Shown piece after piece: positions 48,758 through 64,000 of a stretch of DNA of 64,000 nucleotides. The DNA is from Pirellulaceae bacterium (GTDB lineage: Bacteria; Planctomycetota; Planctomycetia; Pirellulales; Pirellulaceae). Location: positions 12,730-76,729 of the forward strand of contig JAWXCK010000253.1 in NCBI GenBank assembly GCA_034408855.1, given 5' to 3'. Within the stretch, counting starts at the first letter, position 1. Each line of letters opens with the position of its first letter. The notes under the pieces were generated by a model. The model saw only the letters and a program-made list of their open reading frames with translations. It was not told where the DNA came from and searched no databases. Position numbers and translations under genes: made by a program.

Positions 48758-49979
48758 TCCCGTTACCGAAAAATCGAGTGAGAATCTTTCGACAGCATCG
48801 ATACCTTCAATCGCAACGAACATTTCGAGCAATCGCGATGAGCGACGATTGCGAGTCGCTTTCGTGATTACCAGCATGCCAGTCGGTGGCGCAGAAACGC
48901 TCTTATTGAATCTCATTCGCGGTCTAGTCCAGTCTCGCTTCTTGCCAGAACTGATTTGTTTGAAGGAGCTTGGACCGCTCGGCGAGATATTGGCTGATGA
49001 GATTCCAACCAAGCATTCGGTGCTTCGCAGCAAGTATGACGTCACGATTCTCTATCGGCTTGTCCAGTACTTTCGGCGAAACAAGATCGACGCCGTTATC
49101 ACGGTTGGGGCCGGTGATAAGATGTTTTGGGGAAGGCTCGCAGCAAAACTAGCCAGGGTGCCCGTCATTTGTTCGGCGCTTCATTCGACAGGTTGGCCTG
49201 ATGGCGTAGGTCGACTCAATCGACTGCTGACGCGAATCACCGATCGGTTTATCGCCGTAGCTGATTCGCATGGAAAATTCCTCGTTGAATTCGAGCGTTT
49301 TCCGGAATCGAAAGTCGCGATTATACGCAATGGAATCGACGCCGATCGATTTGTCCCGAACCCTTCGGCCCGAGCGACCGTCAGAACAACGTTAGGATTG
49401 ACGCCGGACGCGCCATTAGTCGGGATTGTTGCCGCCCTGCGACCGGAAAAGAATCATGAGCTCTTTTTGGAAGTCGCCAGCCGAACCTGTCAGGTCGTAC
49501 CCGACGCACAATTCATCATTGTCGGTGAGGGGCCCGAGCGAGCAAAGATCGAGTCGATCATTGCTGACTTAGGACTGAAATCAAATGTCCGCATGTTAGG
49601 CAACCGGAGCGACACGCCACAATGGCTCGCAGCATTGGATGTCTTTCTGCTAACCAGCCACAACGAAGCCAACCCAGTCTCGATACTTGAAGCATTGGCA
49701 TGTGGCGTTCCGGTGGTGAGTACCAATGTCGGATCGATAGCTGAAACGGTTCAAGACGGCCAGACGGGCTATACCGTAGAAGCGGGAAACGCCGAGCAAG
49801 CCAGTCGCTGCGTCCTGCAGTTACTATTGGATTCAAAGAAAGCCAAGGAACTCGGGGTTCGCGGCCGCGAACTCGTACTAAGAACCGGCTCACTCAAAGC
49901 CATGGTACAAGGCTATGAAAAGTTAATTGAAAAAGTCTATACTACGAAGCGACGTTGTCCTCGTAGCTCAATTGGATAG
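48750..49979 (+). CDS. glycosyltransferase family 4 (GT-B, GT1-type)
   Basis: VAFVITSMPVGGAETLLLNL N-terminus and the C-terminal EANPVSILEALACGVPVVSTNVGSIAETV (E-x7-E region). Start ATG 48750 overlaps the previous gene by 8 nt. The 3' end overlaps the tRNA by 23 nt. Confidence 0.8.
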   Translation: MNSPVTEKSSENLSTASIPSIATNISSNRDERRLRVAFVITSMPVGGAETLLLNLIRGLVQSRFLPELICLKELGPLGEILADEIPTKHSVLRSKYDVTILYRLVQYFRRNKIDAVITVGAGDKMFWGRLAAKLARVPVICSALHSTGWPDGVGRLNRLLTRITDRFIAVADSHGKFLVEFERFPESKVAIIRNGIDADRFVPNPSARATVRTTLGLTPDAPLVGIVAALRPEKNHELFLEVASRTCQVVPDAQFIIVGEGPERAKIESIIADLGLKSNVRMLGNRSDTPQWLAALDVFLLTSHNEANPVSILEALACGVPVVSTNVGSIAETVQDGQTGYTVEAGNAEQASRCVLQLLLDSKKAKELGVRGRELVLRTGSLKAMVQGYEKLIEKVYTTKRRCPRSSIG

Positions 49980-50030
49980 AGCGTCGGCCTCCGAAGCCGA
50001 AGGTTCCGCGTTCGAATCGCGGCGAGGATA
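49957..50030 (+). tRNA. tRNA-Arg (anticodon CCG)
   Basis: Hand-folded cloverleaf. Acceptor GTCCTCG/CGAGGAT (G1-U72), D stem GCTC/GAGC with loop AATTGGATA, and anticodon stem TCGGC/GCCGA with loop CTCCGAA. T stem CCGCG/CGCGG with loop TTCGAAT, and discriminator A. No CCA is encoded. Confidence 0.9.
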
Positions 50031-50176
50031 CTTCTGAATGCCTCACGATTTGCAAGACATACTGCAAATATCTTAGCCTGAGCTTAGTTGTTTTCTAAGT
50101 CAGAGTTTCGGTAGTTACCGTTTTACCGTCGTAAACCCGGTATTTCCGAAGCTCGCAACAGGACAGGACTAAGTCA

Positions 50177-51418
50177 ATGCGAGTATCAGCGTACCGGCTT
50201 CACAAAGCATCCGGGCAAGCTATCGTCTCTCTCAATGGGACGGATCACTATCTAGGCAAGCATGATTCCCCCGAAAGCCGCTCCAAGTATGAATCGCTCA
50301 TCGCGGATCATTTGAAGACGAGAGCCAAGGAGAAGGCCAAGAAGGCCAGGATCGACAACGATGGGCCGGGCTACCGGCTACATGCAAGGAGTGGCCAGGC
50401 GGTCGTTACGATTTCCGGCCACGACTATTACCTTGGGGTGTTCAACTCGAAAGAGTCGAAGGCCAAGTACCATCGCCTGAAGGCTGAATGGATCGCTTCA
50501 GGTAAATCTCCGTCGTTTGGCGTGAAGCCAGAGGAACTAACCGTCATCGAAATGATGGCAGCCTGGGTTCGGTTTGCGAAGGAATACTACGGAGAGGGGC
50601 CAAGTTCCGAGCTTCACCGGGCAGTTCCAGTGCTGAAAGTCCTCAAGACGCTCTACGGATCGGAACCGGCCGTGAACTTCGGGCCGCTGCAATACGAGGC
50701 CGTCCGGGTTACTTTGCTCGAACCCTATCTCGTGAAGCGGAAAGGCGGGACGTCGGAAAAGAAGCGTCGGAGCCGAACCTACATCAACTCATTGATGAAA
50801 CGGTTGCGGGCAGTATTCCGATGGGCAGCGTCAAAGTCGCTGATTCCTGTTTCCGTTCACGACACGCTTAAAACCGTTGAGCCGCTCAAGCATGGCAGAA
50901 CGACTGCGCCGGAGCTCGACCCGGTGGCACCAGTTCCAGACGAAATCGTCGATGCGACTCTTCCAAAACTTAACCACGTGATGAAAGCGATGGTCGAGTT
51001 CCAACGGCTTACTGGCTGTCGACCGGGCGAAGTATGCAAGATAAAGCCATCGATGGTCGATCGGACAGCCGACGTATGGGAAGTCCAGCTTGCCAAGCAC
51101 AAGACAGCCTATCGCGGGAGAAAGCGAACAGTCTATGCGGGAACAAGGGCACAAGCGATTCTTGCTCCATTCCTGCTTCGCGGTGAAGACGAATTCTGCT
51201 TCAGTCCGATCGAGGCCGAAAAGCGGAGGCGTAAAGAGAAGCATATCGCCCGTAAAACCCCGCTTTCGTGCGGGAATAAGCCGGGCTCGAAGATCGCAAA
51301 GGCACCGCTCAAACAGCCTGGGCCATGCTACACCAGGCCATTCGAAGCCCTGATGCGACCATCGGGGCTTTTTTGTCGGCAATGTTCGCCGCAAATCATC
51401 GGTTTTGCGGCCTATTGA
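50177..51418 (+). CDS. tyrosine-type site-specific integrase, C-terminal catalytic region degenerate (probable pseudogene)
   Basis: Duplicated N-terminal motif (YRLHKASGQAIVSLNGTDHYLGKHDSPESRSKY / YRLHARSGQAVVTISGHDYYLGVFNSKESKAKY). Box I region LTGCRPGE and KHKT are present. No in-frame HxxR...Y is found, and the tail CSPQIIGFAAY looks like a decayed W-x-P-x-Q-L-R-H segment. Confidence 0.6.
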   Translation: MRVSAYRLHKASGQAIVSLNGTDHYLGKHDSPESRSKYESLIADHLKTRAKEKAKKARIDNDGPGYRLHARSGQAVVTISGHDYYLGVFNSKESKAKYHRLKAEWIASGKSPSFGVKPEELTVIEMMAAWVRFAKEYYGEGPSSELHRAVPVLKVLKTLYGSEPAVNFGPLQYEAVRVTLLEPYLVKRKGGTSEKKRRSRTYINSLMKRLRAVFRWAASKSLIPVSVHDTLKTVEPLKHGRTTAPELDPVAPVPDEIVDATLPKLNHVMKAMVEFQRLTGCRPGEVCKIKPSMVDRTADVWEVQLAKHKTAYRGRKRTVYAGTRAQAILAPFLLRGEDEFCFSPIEAEKRRRKEKHIARKTPLSCGNKPGSKIAKAPLKQPGPCYTRPFEALMRPSGLFCRQCSPQIIGFAAY

Positions 51419-54198: not shown

Positions 54199-55143
54199 AT
54201 GGATCATACGAAATCGACGGATCGCGAGCAAGCAAAAGCGAACGGTCAAAAAGATGATGCGGCAAATAAAAGAGGCAAAGTCCGAGGCGAGCAACTCTCG
54301 TTATTGCGACTCTTGCGATTACCAGACGTTCTAAAGACCAAGCATGGGCAATCTGTATCTCCAGGGATCGTCAAAGCTGTCTTGCGTGCGATCGATGATT
54401 ACGACGGTGTCAAGGGATGTTGGGCGAGCGTCGAGACGTTATCAGACGACACCTGTTTTTCTGAATCTGTAGTTGGTCGCGCGATTGAAGTCCTGAAGTC
54501 ACTCGACTTGATAATCTCCACACCACGCTACCGAGACACCAACATTCACTCAATTAATTGGGGAGTTGTTTCCAGTAGTCGTTTTGCCCCACGGGCAAAA
54601 TCACTACCTGTTAACGAGAAAAGTCATTCTGCCCCTGGGGTAAGTGGTTTTGCCCCTGGGGTAAGTGGTTCTGCCCCTGGGGTAAAGTCGAGTTGCCCCA
54701 CGGGCAAAGGAAACGCAATTGAAACGCAATTGAAACGCAAAAGAAACGCAAAGCATGAGATAGATGAATCTCTTTTGTCTCTCATTCGATGGTGGAATTC
54801 CCTCAAGGAGCGAAAGCTAGTACTGGCAGGCGTAGAAACAGAACCATCCAAAGGAGTACTAGCCGGATGGAAGCGATTCAAGAAGTCTCCAGAGTTGCGC
54901 ACACTCTTAGCCGACCGTACCAAGATCGAAACGGCGCTCCAGCAATCCTACCTGCCGCAGAAGGGAGCTTGGTTCACATTGCCAAAGCTCTTGGGGGGTA
55001 CGGTTCCGGATGGCGAATACGCAGTTCGGAAACTGCTGGACGGCAGCTATGCAGATATCGCAGGCTCAAAGCCAAAGACGGCCAACGACGGACCCGGTGT
55101 TAACTACGACCCGAACAGGAGTATTTCCGATGACAAATTCTAA
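54199..55143 (+). CDS. replication-initiator-like winged-helix protein
   Basis: 314 aa with an AAGGAGG RBS. N-terminal wHTH-like segment VKAVLRAIDDYDGVKGCWASVETLSDDTCFSESVVGRAIEVLKSLDLI. The repeat-encoded linker is SAPGVSGFAPGVSGSAPGV. Confidence 0.5.
   Translation: MDHTKSTDREQAKANGQKDDAANKRGKVRGEQLSLLRLLRLPDVLKTKHGQSVSPGIVKAVLRAIDDYDGVKGCWASVETLSDDTCFSESVVGRAIEVLKSLDLIISTPRYRDTNIHSINWGVVSSSRFAPRAKSLPVNEKSHSAPGVSGFAPGVSGSAPGVKSSCPTGKGNAIETQLKRKRNAKHEIDESLLSLIRWWNSLKERKLVLAGVETEPSKGVLAGWKRFKKSPELRTLLADRTKIETALQQSYLPQKGAWFTLPKLLGGTVPDGEYAVRKLLDGSYADIAGSKPKTANDGPGVNYDPNRSISDDKF
54584..54753. promoter_or_regulatory. iteron-like repeat cluster inside the Rep-like gene (candidate origin or protein-binding array)
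   Basis: Two copies of the palindrome ttgccccacgggcaa (54584-54598 and 54693-54707) flank three 21-bp tandem repeats of (t/c)tgcccctggggtaagtggt. Four 11-bp tandem repeats of gaaacgcaa(tt/aa/ag) follow at 54710-54753. Confidence 0.55.
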
Positions 55144-56083: not shown

Positions 56084-56434
56084 TTAGGCTATAATCGTTC
56101 TGCGCGCATCGGTCAGTCTCGAACATGATCGACCGAACGCGTTTGGCATCGCGGCGATAGAGACGACCCCCATTCCTTTTTGGACCATGATTTCCAGATT
56201 ATCATCCACAAAGCGCTCCGGATCGACCACCAATCGACTTACCGGATAAGCAACGGTGCGAGCGAGTGTTTCTGGGATCTCGAAGAGCTCATCGGTGTAG
56301 GCGTCCGTCATGAGTCGAAGTTCGTCAGCTAAATCTTGATCATTCAAGACGAATTGTTCACTAACCTCTTCCGGAACCACTTTTGACGCATGCGGAATGT
56401 GAATAATCGTAAACGGGGAATGCAAGCCGGACAT
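56084..56434 (-). pseudogene. N-formylglutamate amidohydrolase family gene, 3'-truncated
   Basis: The 116 aa HIPHASKVVPEE...TDAYTDELF...VSRLVVDPERFVDDNLEIMVQKGMGVV match only the N-terminal part of this family. The tail is unrelated and the ORF stops early. Confidence 0.55.
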
Positions 56435-56791: not shown

Positions 56792-59269
56792 ATGGCCATC
56801 AAGAAATCCGATCTATACTCGTCCCTCTGGGCCTCGTGCGATGAACTTCGCGGCGGGATGGATGCCAGCCAGTACAAGGACTACGTCCTGTTCATGCTGT
56901 TCATCAAATACATCTCCGACAAGTACGCAGACTACGACGGATTCGAGCCGCCGGTCGTCATCCCGCCAGGAGCAAGCTTCATGGATATGATCGCCCTCAA
57001 GGGAAAGGATGGCATCGGCGACAAAATCAACACGCAAGTCATTCAAAAACTTGTCGATGCGAATGATCGCCTCTCCCGTCACGACTTCCCTGACTTCAAC
57101 GATCCGAACAAGCTCGGCGAGGGGCAGGCGATGGTGGAGCGCCTGACCAACCTCATTGGCATCTTCCAAAAGCCGGAACTGGATTTCTCCCAGAACCGCG
57201 CCGAACACGACGACATTCTCGGCGACGCCTACGAGTATCTGATGCGGCACTTCGCCACCGAGAGCGGCAAGAGCAAGGGGCAATTCTATACCCCGTCCGA
57301 GGTCAGCCGCGTCATGGCCAAGGTCATCGGCATTTCTCCAAAGAATACCGTTGCCTCGACGACCGCCCACGACCCCTTCTGTGGCTCCGGCTCTCTGCTG
57401 CTGAAGGTCGCTGCCGAGGCCGGAAAACACATCACGCTCGAAGGGCAGGAGAAGGACGTGACCACCGCAGGTCTCGCCCGCATGAACATGATCCTGCACG
57501 ACTTCCCCACGGCGAATATCATCTCCGGCAACACTCTAGCCGCCCCCAAGTTCAAGGACGGTGAACAGCTTCGCACTTACGACTACGTCGTCGCCAATCA
57601 ACCATTTTCCGACAAGACCTGGAGCACCGGCCTCATCCCGGAGAACGATCTCTACCAGCGTTTTCAGTGGGGGGTGCCGCCGAAGAAGCAAGGCGACTAC
57701 GCCTATCTCCTGCACATCATCCGCTCGATGAAGAGCACGGGCAAGGCCGCCTGCATTCTCCCGCATGGCGTGCTTTTTCGCGGCGGTGCTGAAGGCGTCA
57801 TCCGCCAGCAGCTTATCCGCTCCGGTTATCTCAAGGCCATCATCGGCCTGCCTGCCAATCTTTTTTACGGCACGGGCATCCCCGCCTGCATCCTAGTGCT
57901 CGACAAGGAAAACGCCAAAGCCCGCAAAGGCATCTTCATGATCGACGCCTCCAAGAGCTTTATCAAGGATGGCAACAAGAATCGTCTCCGCGAGCAGGAC
58001 ATTCACCGCATCGTGGACACCTTCAAAAAACTGTCCGAAGTCCCACGCTACGCGCGCATGGTGCCAGTCGAGGAAATCGCCGACCTGAAGAACGACTTCA
58101 ACCTCAACCTTCCGCGCTACATCGACAGCAGCGAGCCCGAGGATCTCCAAGACATCAACGGTCACCTGCGCGGCGGCATCCCGAAGCGTGACATCGACGG
58201 ACTGGAGCGCTACTGGCAAGTCATTCCAGCGGTGCGGGAGGAGTTGTTCAAGAAGTCCAAGCATGCGGGCTATTTCGATCTAACCACCTCCGATGTCAAG
58301 TTGGCGATCTTCGGTCATTCTGAGTTTACGGCGTTCAAGAGCGGCGTCGACAAGCTGTTTACAAAGTGGAAAAAAACCAACTCACCGCTATTAAAGAGCT
58401 TTGGCAAGGATGATCACCCCAAGGCACTCATCGAGACGCTGTCCGAAGATTTATTAGCCACCTTTGCCAAAGCGCCGCTTCTAGATTACTACGACATCTA
58501 CCAGCACCTCATGGACTACTGGGCGATGACCATGCAGGACGACTGCTACCTTATCGCCGCCTTCGGGTGGCAGGCTGGCGTACTGCCACGCGAAATCATC
58601 CAGGTGAAGAACAAAGAGAACAAACTCGTCTGGCCCGAGCCGCACGACTTCAAGCGCGGCAAGCGCCGATTTAAGTCCGACCTCATCCCCGCCACACTCG
58701 TAATCGACCGCTACTTCGCCGCCGAGTGCGATGCCGTCGCCGCCATCGAGGGCGAACTGGCCGCCATCGAGCAGCAGCTTGATGAAAAGCGCGAGGAGCA
58801 AAACGATGAGGGTGAATTGCTGCTCGCTGAAGTCATCGAAGGCGAAGGCGACAAGCAGAAGATCACCGCCAAGGCCGTGAAGGCCCGAATCAAGGACATC
58901 GGCAAAGACCCCGATTATGCCGAGGAACGCGAGGCGTTGCAGGGATACGCCGCTCTGCTCGACCAGCAAACGGACGCCAAGACCCGGCTTAAGACCGCGC
59001 AGGACGACCTGGAGGCCAAGCTCGACGCCCAATACCCCAAGCTCAGCGAGGACGAGATCCAGACCCTTGTGGTGGACGACAAATGGCTGGCCACCGTCGC
59101 CGTCGCCGTGCAGGGCGAACTCGACCGCGTCTCGCAGACCCTCACCGGCCGCATCCGCGAGTTCGCTCTGCGCTACGCCACCCCGCTGCCACAGCTCACC
59201 GACGAAGTCGCCACGCTCGCCAGCCGCGTTGACGAACACCTCAAAAGGATGGGAGCGGTATGGAAGTGA
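56792..59269 (+). CDS. hsdM: type I restriction-modification system methyltransferase subunit HsdM (long form)
   Basis: 825 aa. HsdM N-domain (SSLWASCDELRGGMDASQYKDYVLFMLFIKYISDK), AdoMet motif DPFCGSGSLLL and catalytic motif VANQPFS. A long acidic coiled-coil C-terminal extension is present. Confidence 0.9.
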   Translation: MAIKKSDLYSSLWASCDELRGGMDASQYKDYVLFMLFIKYISDKYADYDGFEPPVVIPPGASFMDMIALKGKDGIGDKINTQVIQKLVDANDRLSRHDFPDFNDPNKLGEGQAMVERLTNLIGIFQKPELDFSQNRAEHDDILGDAYEYLMRHFATESGKSKGQFYTPSEVSRVMAKVIGISPKNTVASTTAHDPFCGSGSLLLKVAAEAGKHITLEGQEKDVTTAGLARMNMILHDFPTANIISGNTLAAPKFKDGEQLRTYDYVVANQPFSDKTWSTGLIPENDLYQRFQWGVPPKKQGDYAYLLHIIRSMKSTGKAACILPHGVLFRGGAEGVIRQQLIRSGYLKAIIGLPANLFYGTGIPACILVLDKENAKARKGIFMIDASKSFIKDGNKNRLREQDIHRIVDTFKKLSEVPRYARMVPVEEIADLKNDFNLNLPRYIDSSEPEDLQDINGHLRGGIPKRDIDGLERYWQVIPAVREELFKKSKHAGYFDLTTSDVKLAIFGHSEFTAFKSGVDKLFTKWKKTNSPLLKSFGKDDHPKALIETLSEDLLATFAKAPLLDYYDIYQHLMDYWAMTMQDDCYLIAAFGWQAGVLPREIIQVKNKENKLVWPEPHDFKRGKRRFKSDLIPATLVIDRYFAAECDAVAAIEGELAAIEQQLDEKREEQNDEGELLLAEVIEGEGDKQKITAKAVKARIKDIGKDPDYAEEREALQGYAALLDQQTDAKTRLKTAQDDLEAKLDAQYPKLSEDEIQTLVVDDKWLATVAVAVQGELDRVSQTLTGRIREFALRYATPLPQLTDEVATLASRVDEHLKRMGAVWK

Positions 59270-60527
59270 AGCCCGGCTACAAGCAGACGGAGGTGGGCGT
59301 CATCCCGGAGGAGTGGGAGGTTTGCCGCCTGTCGAGCCTCGTCGTGTCTGGTCCAAAGAACGGTTACTCAGGGCGGAGTGGAAAAGATGCCCGAGGAACT
59401 CCGACGCTAGCTCTCACCGCAACAACATCGGGGCGAATGATTCTCGATGAGGAAACACTGAAGCATCTCGAAGAAACGCTCGAACAAAACTCGGACGTTT
59501 TTCTCAAGGCGGGTGATGTGCTCGTTCAACGGTCAAACACGCCCGACCTTGTTGGCACGACGGCGATTTTTGATGGCCCCAGCGGCGTGTTTGCGTACCC
59601 CGACTTAATGATGCGATTGCGCTTCAAGGCACAGGAGACCGCTCGCTGGTTTTGGCGCTATGCGAACAGTTCAAGCGGCAGGCGTTATTTCGTCAGCGTG
59701 GCCGCCGGTTCGACCGGAACTATGCCCAAGATAAGCGGAGACAAGCTCCGCAACATGCCGCTTCCGCTGCCAAAGCCTCCCGAACAACGCGCGATCGCGA
59801 CGGCGTTGAGCGATGTGGATGCGCTGCTGGGCGCACTGGACCGGCTCATCGCCAAGAAGCGCGACCTCAAACGGCCGCCATGCAGCAACTCCTCACCGGC
59901 CAAACCCGCCTCCCCGGCTTCCACGGCGCGTGGGAGGTGACAACACTGGGTGAAGTCGCGACGTTTCTTTCTGGGGGAACGCCTTCACGCAGTAATGATG
60001 AATATTGGAATGGAGAAATTCCCTGGATCAGCGCAATGAGCCTCCGGTGCTTTGACGTATGGCGCTCTGATAGTAACGTCACCGAAGAAGCTGTTGCTTC
60101 GGGTAGCAAAATTGCTCCGATAGATTCCACCCTGCTGCTTGTTCGTGGGAGCGCTTTACACAAAGAGATTCTCTGTGGATTGGTAACGAAACGAGTCTGT
60201 TTCAATCAGGATGTAAAAGCGATGATCCCTTACTCGAACGTGTTCCCTCGATTCTTGACTTGGTTAATACGGGGAAGGGCTGACGATTTTCTTAAATTGG
60301 TTTCTTCAGCCGGGAACACTGCGGGAGTTCTCGATACGAAGCTGTTGAAAGCATTCCAGTTTCTCCTGCCTGAACGGCTCGAACAAATCGCCATCGCCGC
60401 CGTGCTGACGGAGATGGACGCGGAGCTGGCGGTGCTGGAGCACCGGCAGGCCAAGACCCGCGCCCTCAAGCAAGGCATGATGCAGGAACTGTTAACCGGG
60501 AAAACCAGGCTGCCTGTTCAATTATGA
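59260..60527 (+). pseudogene. hsdS: type I R-M specificity subunit HsdS, interrupted by a -1 frameshift in the central conserved region
   Basis: TRD1 plus central region lie in frame 1 (ORF 59260-59940). ...AAMQQLLTGQTRLPGF, TRD2 and the C-terminal conserved region lie in another frame (ORF 59652-60527). The junction ctcaaac-ggccgccatgcag lacks one base relative to the expected LKQAAMQ. The start overlaps the hsdM stop. Confidence 0.8.
60405..60527 (+). repeat. hsdS 3' conserved-region segment, copy 1 (functional end of hsdS)
   Basis: Encodes LTEMDAELAVLEHRQAKTRALKQGMMQELLTGKTRLPVQL*. Confidence 0.85.
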
Positions 60528-61003
60528 AATCAAAACCCCCAGAAAGCGGACTTCTAGAGGCCAAAGGAAAAAACGGCCAAAGGATATTCTACCAGTATTC
60601 CTGTGATCAACAGATTGAAGATTATGATGAAAAGACAATGTGGTGTTTCCAAATAGCCAATGATGATGGAGTCTTTGATTTCCATCTGGTTGACGAAGAC
60701 AGCCTCATGCGTGTCGAAATGATGACACGCAACGACTGCGAACTTTTCAAGGCTCGAGGCATTGCCGAGGCCTTCATTAGGCTAAGCAGCCAAATCTTTA
60801 AGATTGACATCTGTTCTTCTTCCCGAGCAAGACCTCAACCTAGTACCTCGCGAATTGAATCTGTGGCTGAACAGCATTCCGACGGCGCTAGAAAAGTCTG
60901 GCAAGGGCTCGTCGACAGCAAAGAGTCCCACTACGACAATTGTACGCAACGTTTCGTCTATCCATATAAAAATCGCGAAGAAGTTGACGGAGATGGACGC
61001 TGA
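60524..61003 (+). CDS. hypothetical protein (ORF A), possibly GNAT-like
   Basis: 159 aa. The ATG overlaps the hsdS stop (ATGA). The segment FKARGIAEAFIRL...ARKVWQGLV is vaguely GNAT motif-A-like. The 3' end runs 20 nt into hsdS-end copy 2. Confidence 0.45.
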   Translation: MKSKPPESGLLEAKGKNGQRIFYQYSCDQQIEDYDEKTMWCFQIANDDGVFDFHLVDEDSLMRVEMMTRNDCELFKARGIAEAFIRLSSQIFKIDICSSSRARPQPSTSRIESVAEQHSDGARKVWQGLVDSKESHYDNCTQRFVYPYKNREEVDGDGR

Positions 61004-61109
61004 GCTGGCGGTGCTGGAGCAGCGGCTGGTCAAGACCCGCGCCCTTAAGCAAGGCATGAAGCAGGAACTCCTCACCGGCAAAACTCGGCTGGTGCAACGA
61101 AATACATAA
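60984..61109 (+). repeat. hsdS 3' conserved-region segment, copy 2 (remnant)
   Basis: Encodes LTEMDAELAVLEQRLVKTRALKQGMKQELLTGKTRLVQRNT*. By hand alignment 95 of 108 nt are identical to copy 1. It is not in frame with ORF A. Confidence 0.85.
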
Positions 61110-61111
61110 CC

Positions 61112-61744
61112 ATGCCCAAGCTGAATACCACAACTAGTCCGTTGTCTCCTACGATTGAATTGACGCAGTCATACATGCGTAAATGGGGGACGTTGGAAAA
61201 ATACAAGTTCCAGGAGGATTCGCTAAGTTTGCTGTTCCAGGAATTCTGCCCAAATAATTCCGACATCGTCCATGTGTTGCTGAAGGTGAGCGCTTTGAAC
61301 GACTTCTACACCACCAACATTTACGATACGCATTCCGTGGCGAAACATATCATCGCGAGTGATGTCGATAGTCGAATAGCTGACGGCGACTGTTCGTTGG
61401 TGAATCAAATGGCCTCTGTCGTCGTGGGCGGCAAAATCCGTAATTTTTACTCGTTCGCCTCAAAGTATTGCAACCATCACAACCCCGAAGCGTTTCCCAT
61501 CTACGACTCTTACGTCGAGAAGATGCTGCTGCATTTTAGGGACGCGCACAATTTCGCTCAATTCAGCAAGGCCGAGTTAAAGCAATACAGCCGGTTCGTG
61601 GCGATTATCCACTCTTTTAGGCAACACTACTCGCTTGAGCAATTTTCTCTTCGGCAGATTGCCATCTATCTCTGGCTGGCTGGAAAAGATTCATTTGGAA
61701 GATTCCTCCAGAAGCAAACGAAAGAAATAAAGGATCGACCTTGA
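61112..61744 (+). CDS. hypothetical protein (ORF B)
   Basis: 210 aa. The ATG lies 2 nt after the stop of hsdS-end copy 2. Probably helical (LLKVSALNDFYTTNIYDTHSVAKHI...SFASKYCNHHNPEAFPIYDSYV). Family not recognised. Confidence 0.5.
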   Translation: MPKLNTTTSPLSPTIELTQSYMRKWGTLEKYKFQEDSLSLLFQEFCPNNSDIVHVLLKVSALNDFYTTNIYDTHSVAKHIIASDVDSRIADGDCSLVNQMASVVVGGKIRNFYSFASKYCNHHNPEAFPIYDSYVEKMLLHFRDAHNFAQFSKAELKQYSRFVAIIHSFRQHYSLEQFSLRQIAIYLWLAGKDSFGRFLQKQTKEIKDRP

Positions 61745-61749
61745 ACACG

Positions 61750-61863
61750 CTGACAGATATCGTCGTGGAGCTGGCGGTGCTGGAGCAGAGGCAGACCAAG
61801 ACCAGCACGCTGAAGCAGCGCATGATGCGAGAACTTTTAGCCGGAAGGACGCGATTGGTATGA
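61750..61863 (+). repeat. hsdS 3' conserved-region segment, copy 3 (more diverged remnant)
   Basis: Encodes LTDIVVELAVLEQRQTKTSTLKQRMMRELLAGRTRLV*. By hand alignment about 83 of 108 nt are identical to copy 1. Its stop overlaps the next ATG (ATGA at 61860-61863). Confidence 0.8.
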
Positions 61864-62699
61864 CGGATAATAATAAGGTCGAACCTCCATCGATAGCGAC
61901 GTTCTACGTCGATGAAGCCGGAGATGGCATTCTCTTTGGGCCAATGGGACGCAACCGGTTGGATGATCCTGACGCACCAAAATTCTTCATGCTTGGCATG
62001 GTTCGTTGTACGGTCGACGCCGAAGCGGAGGCGGCGCTGAGTGCGCTTCGGGCGTCATTGCTCGCCAATCCATTGTATGCGACGATTCATACTATGCGAC
62101 CATCCGTCCAGAAAACCGCTCGTTCGTTTCATGCCAAGGATGATCACGCTGAAGTGCGCGCCAAGGTCTTTGAAGCGCTGCTGGGGCTAGACTTCAAGTT
62201 CTTTGCGGTGATCAAGGATATGCGTTCCGTGTTACGTTATGTTGAAGGGCGTAATCAAATGCACGCGAACTATCGATATCATCCAAACGAGCTTTATGAC
62301 CTTACGGTAAGGATGCTTTTCAAGAATCAACTTCACAAGCACGACCAATATGAAATTACGTTTGCTCGTCGCGGTGCGTCCGATCGCACTAAAGCCCTCG
62401 TTACACAACTCGATTTAGCGAGGCAGGCTTTCATAGCCCAGCATGGGAGAGCTTCGAATTCGTCTCTGGGCATTCATCCAGCGTATCCATGGCAACGCCC
62501 CTGTTTGCAAATAGCTGATTATTGCCTATGGGCATTGCAGAGATGCTACGAACGGCACGAGTGTCGCTTCTTGCAAGCCATTTGGAACAAAGTGTCGTTC
62601 ATTCACGATGTCGACGATCCGAGAAAAACCTACGGTTCGTTTCTAACGCGGAATTCGCCTCCGCCAGACCCAGAGCAAATAAAAAACCGGTGGATATAG
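61860..62699 (+). CDS. DUF3800-like protein
   Basis: 279 aa. N-terminal FYVDEAGDG and C-terminal CLQIADYCLWALQR fit the DUF3800 pattern (DExG ... QxAD). Confidence 0.55.
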   Translation: MTDNNKVEPPSIATFYVDEAGDGILFGPMGRNRLDDPDAPKFFMLGMVRCTVDAEAEAALSALRASLLANPLYATIHTMRPSVQKTARSFHAKDDHAEVRAKVFEALLGLDFKFFAVIKDMRSVLRYVEGRNQMHANYRYHPNELYDLTVRMLFKNQLHKHDQYEITFARRGASDRTKALVTQLDLARQAFIAQHGRASNSSLGIHPAYPWQRPCLQIADYCLWALQRCYERHECRFLQAIWNKVSFIHDVDDPRKTYGSFLTRNSPPPDPEQIKNRWI

Positions 62700-62817
62700 G
62701 TTTCACTGGTCGTTGACCCGAAACACACGGCATGAAGCCGAATTTTGTCCACCGGTTCGACTACAACTATACACACCATTATCGAAGAATTCAAATACCA
62801 TCAAGGAAAAAACGGGA

Positions 62818-62946
62818 ATGTCACCGAGAGCTGAAAAGTTGCTCAAAAGGCTCATTAAACGGGCACAATATCTAGCTTATTGCACACGACGAGAAGACCC
62901 ATCACCGAAAAACTCTAATGAACAATTGATCCATGGAGACTCCTAA
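62818..62946 (+). CDS. possible 42-aa micro-ORF directly abutting the GIY-YIG gene
   Basis: ATG 62818 is preceded by AAGGA about 12 nt upstream. The stop TAA at 62944-62946 is immediately followed by ATG 62947. The product MSPRAEKLLKRLIKRAQYLAYCTRREDPSPKNSNEQLIHGDS is basic and helical. Confidence 0.25.
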   Translation: MSPRAEKLLKRLIKRAQYLAYCTRREDPSPKNSNEQLIHGDS

Positions 62947-63753
62947 ATGCTCGGACTGGTTCCCTATTTGACCGCAAGCGGCGTCAAATTTGACCCCGGC
63001 AACACCAAAATCCACCTCGCTTGTTGGAATGGGATCGAGCACCCACTCGATGTTTTCTACGCTGGAGGATGGCAGGCATGGCAAGATGGTCAGACCAAAC
63101 GAAACTTTGAATGTTCAAATGTTTTAAGCTTGATTGATCTCGGGCGGAGCCACTGGCTGTTTGTCGGCGTTTATGAAGTTCTCAGATGTCAACCGAGCCC
63201 GAAGGGAAATGGACATTTTTTGTACACCACAAAACTGCTTGCAAATCAATCGGAACTCATCGGACGGGTGATTGTCCACCATCAGCGGACGCGGCAGTCG
63301 TATGTTTGGTTTAAACCCGCAATGGAACTGCCGATTGTCGAGATCCGTCGCGAAAAGATGACGATCGCTGATTTTCCTGGCTACAACGCCGTTGTGATCA
63401 ACCACAGTAGTTTGCAGATTATTACACGGCAAAAAATCGCCTCGTGGCACGCTGCCTTGGCCAACATCAAAGGTGTTTATCTTATTGTCGATACCACGAC
63501 CGGAAAGCCTTACGTCGGCAAGGCGTCAGGATCGGTCGGAGTCTGGCAGCGCTGGTGTGCCTATGCCGACAACGGTCACGGTGGCAATGTAGAGTTGAAG
63601 AACGTTTTAAAGGAGAAAGGTTCTGAACACATGCGTAACTTCCAGTATTCCATTTTGGAGATTGCGGATACGCACGCGTCGAACGAAGATATTTTGGAAC
63701 GTGAGTCGTACTGGATGAACGTATTGCGATCGAGGGAGTTTGGATTGAATTGA
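62947..63753 (+). CDS. GIY-YIG nuclease domain protein with unknown N-terminal domain
   Basis: 268 aa. The C-terminal KGVYLIVDTTTGKPYVGKASGSVGVWQRWCAY...GGNVEL...FQYSILEI...ERESYWMNVLRSREFGLN carries the GIY ... YVG ... R ... E ... N elements. Confidence 0.7.
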   Translation: MLGLVPYLTASGVKFDPGNTKIHLACWNGIEHPLDVFYAGGWQAWQDGQTKRNFECSNVLSLIDLGRSHWLFVGVYEVLRCQPSPKGNGHFLYTTKLLANQSELIGRVIVHHQRTRQSYVWFKPAMELPIVEIRREKMTIADFPGYNAVVINHSSLQIITRQKIASWHAALANIKGVYLIVDTTTGKPYVGKASGSVGVWQRWCAYADNGHGGNVELKNVLKEKGSEHMRNFQYSILEIADTHASNEDILERESYWMNVLRSREFGLN

Positions 63754-63821
63754 TTGAACAGCTTTGACACTGAACGATGGCAACCTGGAAATGACTTCGA
63801 AATAGACCGGAACGACTTAGA

Positions 63822-64000
63822 ATGCCTGAACAACCCCGCTCTGAGCGCAAAACACAGAACCGCGTGATTGCTCTGTTCACTGACAAATCGCGTCCAGATT
63901 GCCTCGGCTATCGGCACCTCGGCGATTGGAGCAAGCGCGAGATCAATCGTTGCGTCGAAGTAGAAATACTTCGAGCGAATTTAAAGCAGCGGGGCTATTC
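63822..64000 (+). CDS. hsdR: type I restriction enzyme R subunit HsdR, N-terminal fragment (continues beyond window)
   Basis: My own translation: [59 protein letters not shown]. This resembles the conserved HsdR N-terminus. It is co-directional with hsdMS. Confidence 0.6.

Follow-up and report, generated by a model that had tools for sequence, protein, structure and literature searches.

Genes unrelated to hsd are known to be embedded in the operons of type I restriction-modification (R-M) systems, among them prrC in EcoprrI, rloF in Campylobacter, tgvAB in VPI-2 of Vibrio cholerae and the thousands of genes in the 'guilt-by-embedding' catalogue of Payne et al. (PMC12707154, PMC11411939, bioRxiv 10.1101/2024.01.29.577857). 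These reports cover which genes are embedded and not the route by which they entered; the words 'recombination' and 'hsdS' are absent from the text of the Payne preprint (bioRxiv 10.1101/2024.01.29.577857), and in another source the way in which chromosomal defence genes are mobilised is called 'poorly understood' (PMC12829572). Here we analyse a type I R-M locus carried by 64,000 nucleotides (nt) of DNA from a Pirellulaceae metagenome-assembled genome (MAG), a stretch hereafter named the window. As in the operons mentioned above, whose embedded genes are known or suspected to act against phages, co-oriented non-hsd genes are located between hsdS and hsdR, and two of them, uzuA and the DUF3800 gene, belong to PADLOC families. 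In addition, the 3' end of the specificity gene hsdS is present three times in direct orientation, once as the functional end of hsdS (copy 1) and twice as a short relic (copies 2 and 3) behind two embedded open reading frames, ORF A and ORF B, respectively. We consider it probable, at roughly 0.62, that the relics are joints formed when hsd loci of one family recombined with each other, and that they later acted as portable homology. The hsdS-end relics between embedded genes appear to be new, while it is well established that type I R-M operons can harbour defence genes. A literature search in which subscription journals were thinly covered, so that an earlier mention is possible, returned no description of direct-repeat hsdS 3'-end relics between embedded genes or of the hsdS end as a joining site.

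Homologous recombination within conserved hsdS segments is known to shuffle target-recognition domains (TRDs), and hsdS shufflons that undergo phase variation, such as the pneumococcal ivr/tvr loci, have been described (PMC6265443, PMC7394358, PMC7672463). The array in the window resembles these systems in that the same conserved hsdS segments would serve as recombination substrate and in that partial hsdS copies are found in the locus. Shufflons, which are also found in Mycoplasma, have inverted repeats, silent copies bearing TRDs and usually a site-specific recombinase, and their outcome is a change of specificity. In the array, on the contrary, the repeats are direct, comprise the distal region only (positions 5-45 of the model described below) and carry no TRD, no recombinase is adjacent, and the genes bracketed are unrelated. 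Comparison of two related loci, L234 (5029-6327) and L235 (4915-6171), revealed an identical distal hsdS region followed by a gene for an identical DUF3800 protein while the HsdS proteins measured 432 and 418 amino acids (aa), as domain swapping would give; this difference is probably due to TRD swapping within one population.

A sequence-only reading of the window had likened the array to integrons and to islands that regenerate a tRNA 3' end. This likeness holds as an analogy, but neither an integrase nor an att-like site accompanies the array. With integron arrays it shares promoterless, co-oriented and stacked genes that are each bounded by a common short sequence, and growth would likewise take place at the end beside the anchor gene. 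It differs from them in having no IntI, no attI and no attC hairpin; the repeat is HsdS coding sequence, and general homologous recombination would be the process at work. With tRNA 3'-end islands, minimal mobile elements and integrase-free defence hotspots the array shares the duplication of part of a conserved gene end at the far side of the insert and, putatively, the exchange of cargo by flanking homology with no mobility genes in the cargo. The tRNA islands have a site-specific integrase and an exact att core, while the copies in the array differ by 11-23%, contain no exact core longer than 21 nt and are not accompanied by an integrase. In the minimal mobile elements of Neisseria the cargo is replaced between two different flanking genes and internal repeats are lacking; in the array, by comparison, the homology is carried inside, so that stacking is possible. 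No recombinase was found between positions 56792 and 64000, the sole integrase-like ORF (50177-51418, E 0.003) being located about 9 kb upstream of the array, and no inverted repeat was found in the array, either within or flanking the three copies.

Repeat analysis of the locus indicated one repeat family with three direct copies of 107 nt (Table 1). Relative to copy 1, copy 2 is 89% identical (95/107) and copy 3 is 77% identical (82/107), in close agreement with the 95/108 and about 83/108 counted in the sequence-only reading, and the longest exact runs among the copies are 20-21 nt in local alignments. The translations of copies 1, 2 and 3 are LTEMDAELAVLEHRQAKTRALKQGMMQELLTGKTRL, LTEMDAELAVLEQRLVKTRALKQGMKQELLTGKTRL and LTDIVVELAVLEQRQTKTSTLKQRMMRELLAGRTRL, respectively. 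A peptide regular expression for the HsdS end matched copy 1 only, and tblastn and then a profile hidden Markov model (HMM) were used instead. The profile was built from 59 HsdS C-terminal (distal conserved) regions of independent loci, and the window and related loci were scanned in six-frame translation with a cut-off of 8 bits. Both downstream segments matched the HsdS C-terminus, copy 2 with an E-value of 4.4e-19 (model positions 5-45) and copy 3 with 5.5e-14 (model positions 8-45). Apart from the hsdS central and distal regions and the downstream relics, the sole match listed was one of 10.7 bits, and in a later set one of 9.6 bits. The content of guanine plus cytosine is about 0.6 in hsdM and hsdS, 0.45-0.5 in the inserted genes, and goes up again across every repeat copy.

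The hsdS-hsdR interval of the window contains four genes, all on the plus strand, and three junctions consist of ATGA or of a 2-nt gap. Analysis of these junctions, which the sequence-only reading had given correctly in every detail, revealed ATGA at 60524-60527, TAA-cc-ATG at 61107-61114 (the copy 2 stop, TAA at 61107-61109, being 2 nt ahead of the ORF B start) and ATGA at 61860-61863. ORF A ends 19 nt into copy 2 and ORF B ends 5-6 nt ahead of copy 3, both in a frame different from that of the relic which follows, as had also been claimed. The original stop of ORF A has been lost, its frame now running about eight codons into copy 2, and copy 2 might reach four codons further upstream (IAKK aligned with IAAV). 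The open frame of copy 3 comprises 40 codons, and its TTG start overlaps the ORF B stop as TTGA.

It is common for type I loci to contain more than one hsdS gene, complete or partial (e.g. PMC7394358), and three hsdS genes may once have stood in a row, with ORF A and ORF B now at the place of their former target-recognition domains. We regard such a decay of tandem paralogs as very improbable, since ORF A and ORF B show no Methylase_S similarity in Pfam, in line with the earlier statement that they have no HsdS target-recognition features, and since no full-length hsdS paralogs were found at the positions of the copies in related loci. Moreover, the predicted fold of ORF B is a confident all-alpha domain, unlike a TRD, and ORF B belongs to a large family whose members are located away from this hsdS in 78 of the 80 genome loci surveyed; an obligate partnership with hsd thus applies only to the closest relatives of ORF B and not to the family at large. 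The source of the window is a MAG, and mis-joins are possible at repeats. An assembly artefact or a chance similarity is nevertheless extremely improbable in view of the profile E-values (4e-19 and 5e-14). A second assembly (L001, the Logan assembly of run SRR6448213) is 100% identical to the window over 60462-64000, hence across copies 2 and 3, so that the array cannot be put down to a single assembler. The copies, 11-23% apart, are too different for read collapse or mis-joining, and an equal layout is found in contigs of unrelated samples.

The hsdS gene of the window codes for two Methylase_S domains and the central and distal conserved regions; in HsdS the distal conserved helix pairs with the central conserved helix. 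Its frame is broken by a 1-nt frameshift near 59875, a point absent from the sequence-only reading, and the central conserved region is split over two frames, 59782-59874 and 59874-59921, which read ...KKRDLKR and then, in the other frame, AAMQQLLTGQTRL. The downstream half could begin at the ATG of AAMQQ, which would give two half-HsdS proteins; alternatively, the gene could be a pseudogene, or the frameshift a consensus or assembly error of the MAG.

Table 1. Coordinates of the type I R-M locus and of the three hsdS-end copies in the window
Feature	Position	Strand	Evidence or remark
hsdM (825 aa, type I methyltransferase subunit)	56792-59269	+	Pfam N6_Mtase 2.2e-96, HsdM_N 4.7e-14
hsdS (specificity subunit)	59260-60527	+	Methylase_S matches in both halves
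hsdS halves (two ORFs)	59260-59940 and 59877-60527	+	1-nt frameshift near 59875
Copy 1, functional distal conserved region of hsdS	60381-60527	+	repeat core 60406-60512 (reference); HMM 87 bits
ORF A (159 aa, unknown function)	60524-61003	+	final ~8 codons inside copy 2
Copy 2, hsdS 3'-end relic	60972-61109	+	repeat core 60985-61091; HMM 69.4 bits
ORF B (210 aa, HI_0787_N family PF27257, all-alpha, unknown function)	61112-61744	+	
Copy 3, hsdS 3'-end relic	61741-61863	+	repeat core 61751-61857; HMM 53.1 bits
DUF3800 protein (279 aa, candidate defence gene)	61860-62699	+	Pfam DUF3800 1.7e-06; PADLOC DUF3800_VII 1.5e-10
uzuA-like gene (268 aa, GIY-YIG C-terminal domain; Uzume anti-phage system)	62947-63753	+	PADLOC UzuA 4.8e-63
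hsdR, 5' part, leaves the window	63822-64000	+	tblastn with HsdR of L002, L084 and L090

The comparative evidence is derived from one hsd family, mostly from uncultured bacteria of the Planctomycetes-Verrucomicrobia-Chlamydiae group and other environmental bacteria, in which the HsdM proteins of L002, L084 and L090 are 62-80% identical to that of the window. The search for stacked hsdS ends elsewhere, which the sequence-only reading had proposed, returned relics in L083, L082, L084, L090, L174, L101 and L149. In L083 the hsdS end is followed through ATGA by ORF A and by a relic with an in-frame TAG, and in L082 ORF A is followed by a heavily decayed relic carrying a stop. ORF B stands ahead of a relic in L090 (hsdS, ORF B, relic, REase-ARP/PDDEXK gene, UzuA-like gene, hsdR), in L174 (hsdS, ORF B, relic, 192-aa gene, PLD, Mrr, hsdR) and in L084, whose order is hsdS, HATPase gene, 18-codon relic, ORF B, relic, 274-aa gene, three genes, PLD gene, relic, GmrSD and hsdR. 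L101 contains an 11-codon relic between a 186-aa uncharacterised ORF and a 352-aa ORF that, judged by its sequence, is presumably RhuM-like; L149 contains an 18-codon relic behind an HNH gene. In L002 (hsdS, ORF B, hsdR) every junction is ATGA-coupled and the relic is absent. The close ORF B homologs of L090, L084, L174 and L002 are 67-69% identical to ORF B of the window. The 274-aa gene of L084 was considered as a counterpart of the DUF3800 gene of the window and rejected, the two being not homologous. The HsdS of L082 (2-1324) has no stop past the distal helix (…QELLTGRIRLV) and continues in frame for about 220 residues more, followed by the ORF A homolog; it is an apparent fusion with an embedded gene.

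Alignment of the relics revealed that their 3' edge is the native hsdS stop, which overlaps or touches the start of the next gene, usually as ATGA. At the 5' side the long relics begin at profile positions 5-10 and the short ones at 26-35, and in all cases inspected (window, L083, L084, L090 and L174) this edge coincides with the stop codon of the upstream gene. The joint between ORF B and its relic aligns among the window, L090 and L084, and that between ORF A and its relic among the window, L083 and L082, which indicates that each joint type arose once and was then inherited or spread. At least six joint types were identified, namely those behind ORF A, ORF B, the HATPase gene and the PLD gene and those of L101 and L149. 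We asked whether the relic moves with its downstream gene alone; this was rejected, since the ORF B joint is conserved and the gene downstream of the ORF B relic is different in all four loci (window, L090, L084 and L174), and a hybrid joint is the more fitting description of the relic.

All three genes located behind a copy in the window take the first position after a complete hsdS in other loci, with an ATGA overlap. This state was observed for ORF A in L083, for ORF B in L002, L005, L090 and L174, and for the DUF3800 gene, as a homolog with 71% identity, in L234-L239. The expectation that the intervening genes would stand beside hsdS in other genomes was thus borne out. In L234 the hsdS distal region, ATGA and DUF3800 are collinear with copy 3, ATGA and DUF3800 of the window.

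The identities of HsdM and ORF B are incongruent among these loci: HsdM is 80% identical between the window and L084 and 62% between L084 and L090, while ORF B is 67% identical between the window and L084 and 86% between L084 and L090, which argues that the ORF B cassette moved independently of hsdM. Copy 2 is 88-89% identical to copy 1 of its own locus and 80% to its positional ortholog, the L083 relic, which is in turn 86% identical to the distal conserved region of its own hsdS; within loci the copies are 77-90% identical, with exact runs of 17-38 nt. The ratio of nonsynonymous to synonymous substitution rates (dN/dS) over the last 28 codons is 0.14-0.65 between relics and 0.03-0.37 between functional ends. 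The relic values are relaxed yet far from neutral, which fits, as far as can be judged from sequence, a 3' part that has been overwritten repeatedly with functional hsdS sequence.

An explanation without an ongoing role for recombination is that one or two old illegitimate events were followed by vertical descent, the neighbouring genes being changed by insertions and deletions. The homologous gene/relic joints across loci do point to few founding events, and the rarity of relics in a random sample of the family and their decay in L082 and L083 agree with such a history. We nevertheless regard it as improbable, because the histories of HsdM and ORF B are strongly incongruent, the different genes behind the ORF B relic (4/4 loci) are each joined at a native hsdS stop/start overlap, the relics are closer to the hsdS end of their own locus than to positional orthologs, and there are at least six different joint types.

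From the three repeats, their HsdS identity, their recurrence, the common joints, the first-position states and the incongruent histories we infer a recombination pathway, its direction and its dependence on RecA, in which copies 2 and 3 would mark the joints where blocks from other type I R-M loci entered the hsdS-hsdR interval. A rare non-homologous event would have fused the end of a gene trailing one hsdS with the beginning of the distal region of an hsdS from a different locus, giving a composite of a gene and a trailing relic with hsdS-end homology on its far side. This relic could then undergo RecA-type recombination with a recipient locus at the intact end of its hsdS, together with a second crossover upstream in hsdS or hsdM or by means of a circular intermediate. 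The incoming hsdS and its cassette would land ahead of the resident first gene, the resident hsdS end would become the next relic, and the array would grow at its hsdS-proximal side with no need of an integrase. Since the 3' edge of the relic is the native stop/start overlap, a stacked gene would keep the initiation context that it had behind an intact hsdS, while at the 5' edge the end of the upstream cassette gene would have been attached in a single non-homologous event. The repeats would also permit downstream exchange, gene conversion between copies, and deletion. The order in the window would be explained by two steps onto an L234-like ancestor (hsdS, DUF3800 and onward), ORF B entering first and ORF A second. 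The older copy 3 is indeed more diverged than copy 2, on which the sequence-only reading had based a series of separate events; this difference stands, but homogenisation within the locus and joints that predate the lineage make divergence only a rough clock.

The relics may alternatively be functional mini-ORFs of 37-45 codons that run from the stop of the upstream gene to the start of the following one, relay ribosomes and prevent Rho-dependent polarity over a spacer that would otherwise go untranslated. In a bolder form of this idea they would supply an HsdS-helix peptide in free form, which would bind HsdM and so couple the embedded defence genes to the condition of the R-M complex. Six of the eight relics have open frames, gene callers annotated relics as genes of 37, 40 and 45 aa in L084 and L174, all relics end in ATGA or in close coupling to the following gene, and three of the four loci with an ORF B relic have a start codon that overlaps the stop of ORF B (window, TTGA; L084, TGATG; L174, ATGA). 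However, simulations showed that about 40-46% of sequences keep an open frame at 23-30% neutral divergence, so that six of eight is not significant, and the relic-relic dN/dS values below 1 are predicted equally by conversion with functional hsdS ends. In addition, stops interrupt both the L083 relic (the in-frame TAG) and the degenerate relic of L082, a canonical start codon is absent in L090, the 5' thirds of the relics are highly divergent and L084 has a 9-nt deletion. This function is thus unlikely as an explanation of the relics. A wider form of the recombination model can be put forward only tentatively, and we hold it to be somewhat doubtful: the hsdS 3' end would be an integrase-free attachment site at which host recombination inserts, stacks, swaps and deletes relic-trailed cassettes at any hsdS of the family, with relics that are perhaps translated as relay mini-ORFs or HsdS-helix peptides.

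An unbiased sample of 80 metagenomic loci was recruited via HsdM alone, and both the hsdS stop and the hsdR start were visible in 44 of them. The two genes abut or overlap in 24 of these loci, while the other 20 hold 0.5-4.2 kb of other genes, so that differently filled sites, for which the sequence-only reading had suggested a search, do occur. Several observations weigh against recombination joints as the origin of the relics. An extra match to the distal region was present in only two of the 20 filled loci (L101 and L149), both matches being short; the profile HMM found long relics in none of the 20, and no extra relic was found in about 24 IMG/VR loci with a complete hsdS that were likewise recruited by HsdM. 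Relics are thus rare, and either most embedding leaves no such scar or the scars are quickly lost. The joints are common to several loci and hence old, so that the stacking need not have occurred in this genome. The first joint of each cassette type is beyond homologous recombination and needs a non-homologous event, and random illegitimate joints do not predict that long relics all start at model positions 5-10 and at the upstream stop. With exact runs of about 20 nt the repeats only just reach the length at which RecA recombination is efficient, and neither an empty/filled pair from one population nor a recombination intermediate was found among the loci compared. Finally, the low dN/dS values and open frames could alternatively mean that relics are translated and selected.

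Taken with these caveats, the earlier interpretation of stacked hsdS-end modules is supported, and all the checks that the sequence-only reading had suggested gave a favourable outcome. Of the stepwise addition by recombination at the hsdS end that it had proposed, the recurrence of relics, the first-position states and the incongruent histories speak in favour, while the age of the common joints leaves the place of the events outside this particular genome possible. Judged from the sampled sequences, the hsdS-hsdR interval is a common variable site, in which long relics represent a minority state linked to particular cassettes.

Analyses of the embedded genes showed that ORF A has no match in Pfam, PADLOC or NCBIfam and that its predicted structure is of low confidence, with a predicted local distance difference test score (pLDDT) of 53. 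Only two homologs were found among 5.8 billion proteins (55-57% identity), and both are followed by an hsdS-end relic. The family of ORF B comprises 2,503 homologs, which are mainly located outside hsd loci; in Firmicutes its members are usually preceded by or fused to another conserved domain. ORF B has a weak Pfam match to DUF6308 and no match to a defence family in PADLOC or NCBIfam. The AlphaFold2 model of ORF B (pLDDT 90.9) gave no significant match in a structure search of the PDB, the best being the HhH-GPD 8-oxoguanine glycosylase 3knt (E 0.37), with 1pu7, likewise an HhH-GPD DNA glycosylase, also among the best matches. The UzuA homolog of L090 (11797-12597, 63% identity) likewise adjoins hsdR upstream, and UzuA and hsdR may be a conserved pair in this hsd family. 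By family assignment the cargo would consist of known or candidate anti-phage genes, UzuA and DUF3800 in the window and PLD, GmrSD, Mrr, HNH and RhuM-like genes elsewhere.

The N-terminus of the window HsdR is identical to that of the L101 HsdR, and the independent assembly L001 carries the window hsdR on to 428 aa; the HsdR orthologs of L084, L090 and L174 have HSDR_N, ResIII and SWI2_SNF2 domains. The spacer between the DUF3800 and uzuA genes (62700-62946, 247 nt) is non-coding, is the sole long spacer of the array and contains no hsdS relic; a promoter and terminator scan gave nothing exceeding shuffled expectation and detected none in this spacer. The hsdM-hsdS interval is also filled in L084 (6214-6717), L174 (8446-8772), L185 (5801-6337) and L234 (3097-4985), with inserts that include ORFs of 167 and 108 aa and DUF1016/YhcG.

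Upstream of the locus, a tRNA-Arg(CCG) gene (49957-50031) is followed by the 413-aa ORF (50177-51418) with the weak Phage_integrase match mentioned above, and the hsd locus may be on an island integrated at tRNA-Arg whose far end is beyond the window. Five iteron-like direct repeats of about 22 nt with a spacing of 21-45 nt (54577-54708, consensus AGTNGTTNTGCCCCNNGGGNAAN) were identified within or beside a HTH_36 (DnaD-like) ORF (54199-55143), which suggests a replication or regulatory origin of the island. Immediately upstream of hsdM, a truncated N-formylglutamate amidohydrolase gene on the minus strand (56084-56434), whose 116 aa correspond to profile positions 4-84 of 219, is possibly the scar of the insertion that brought the hsd locus.

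The relics would be physical footprints of the joining of embedded genes to type I R-M operons, and the sequence used would be that of the conserved distal helix of hsdS. They indicate that each embedded gene was once located directly behind an intact hsdS, and that cassettes move between loci that share no more than about 60% identity in hsdM and hsdR. They also lead to a model that can be tested, in which cassettes would insert and stack at the end of hsdS in a RecA-dependent manner, and to a search rule, by which matches to the HsdS distal region outside full-length hsdS would show where cassettes begin and end and point to further candidate defence genes, of which ORF A and ORF B are examples. 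For annotation they give a warning that 'genes' of 37-45 codons in such operons are in fact relics of hsdS. If the wider form of the model is true, type I R-M operons would assemble themselves into defence arrays and would be a counterpart of integrons that is driven by recombination.

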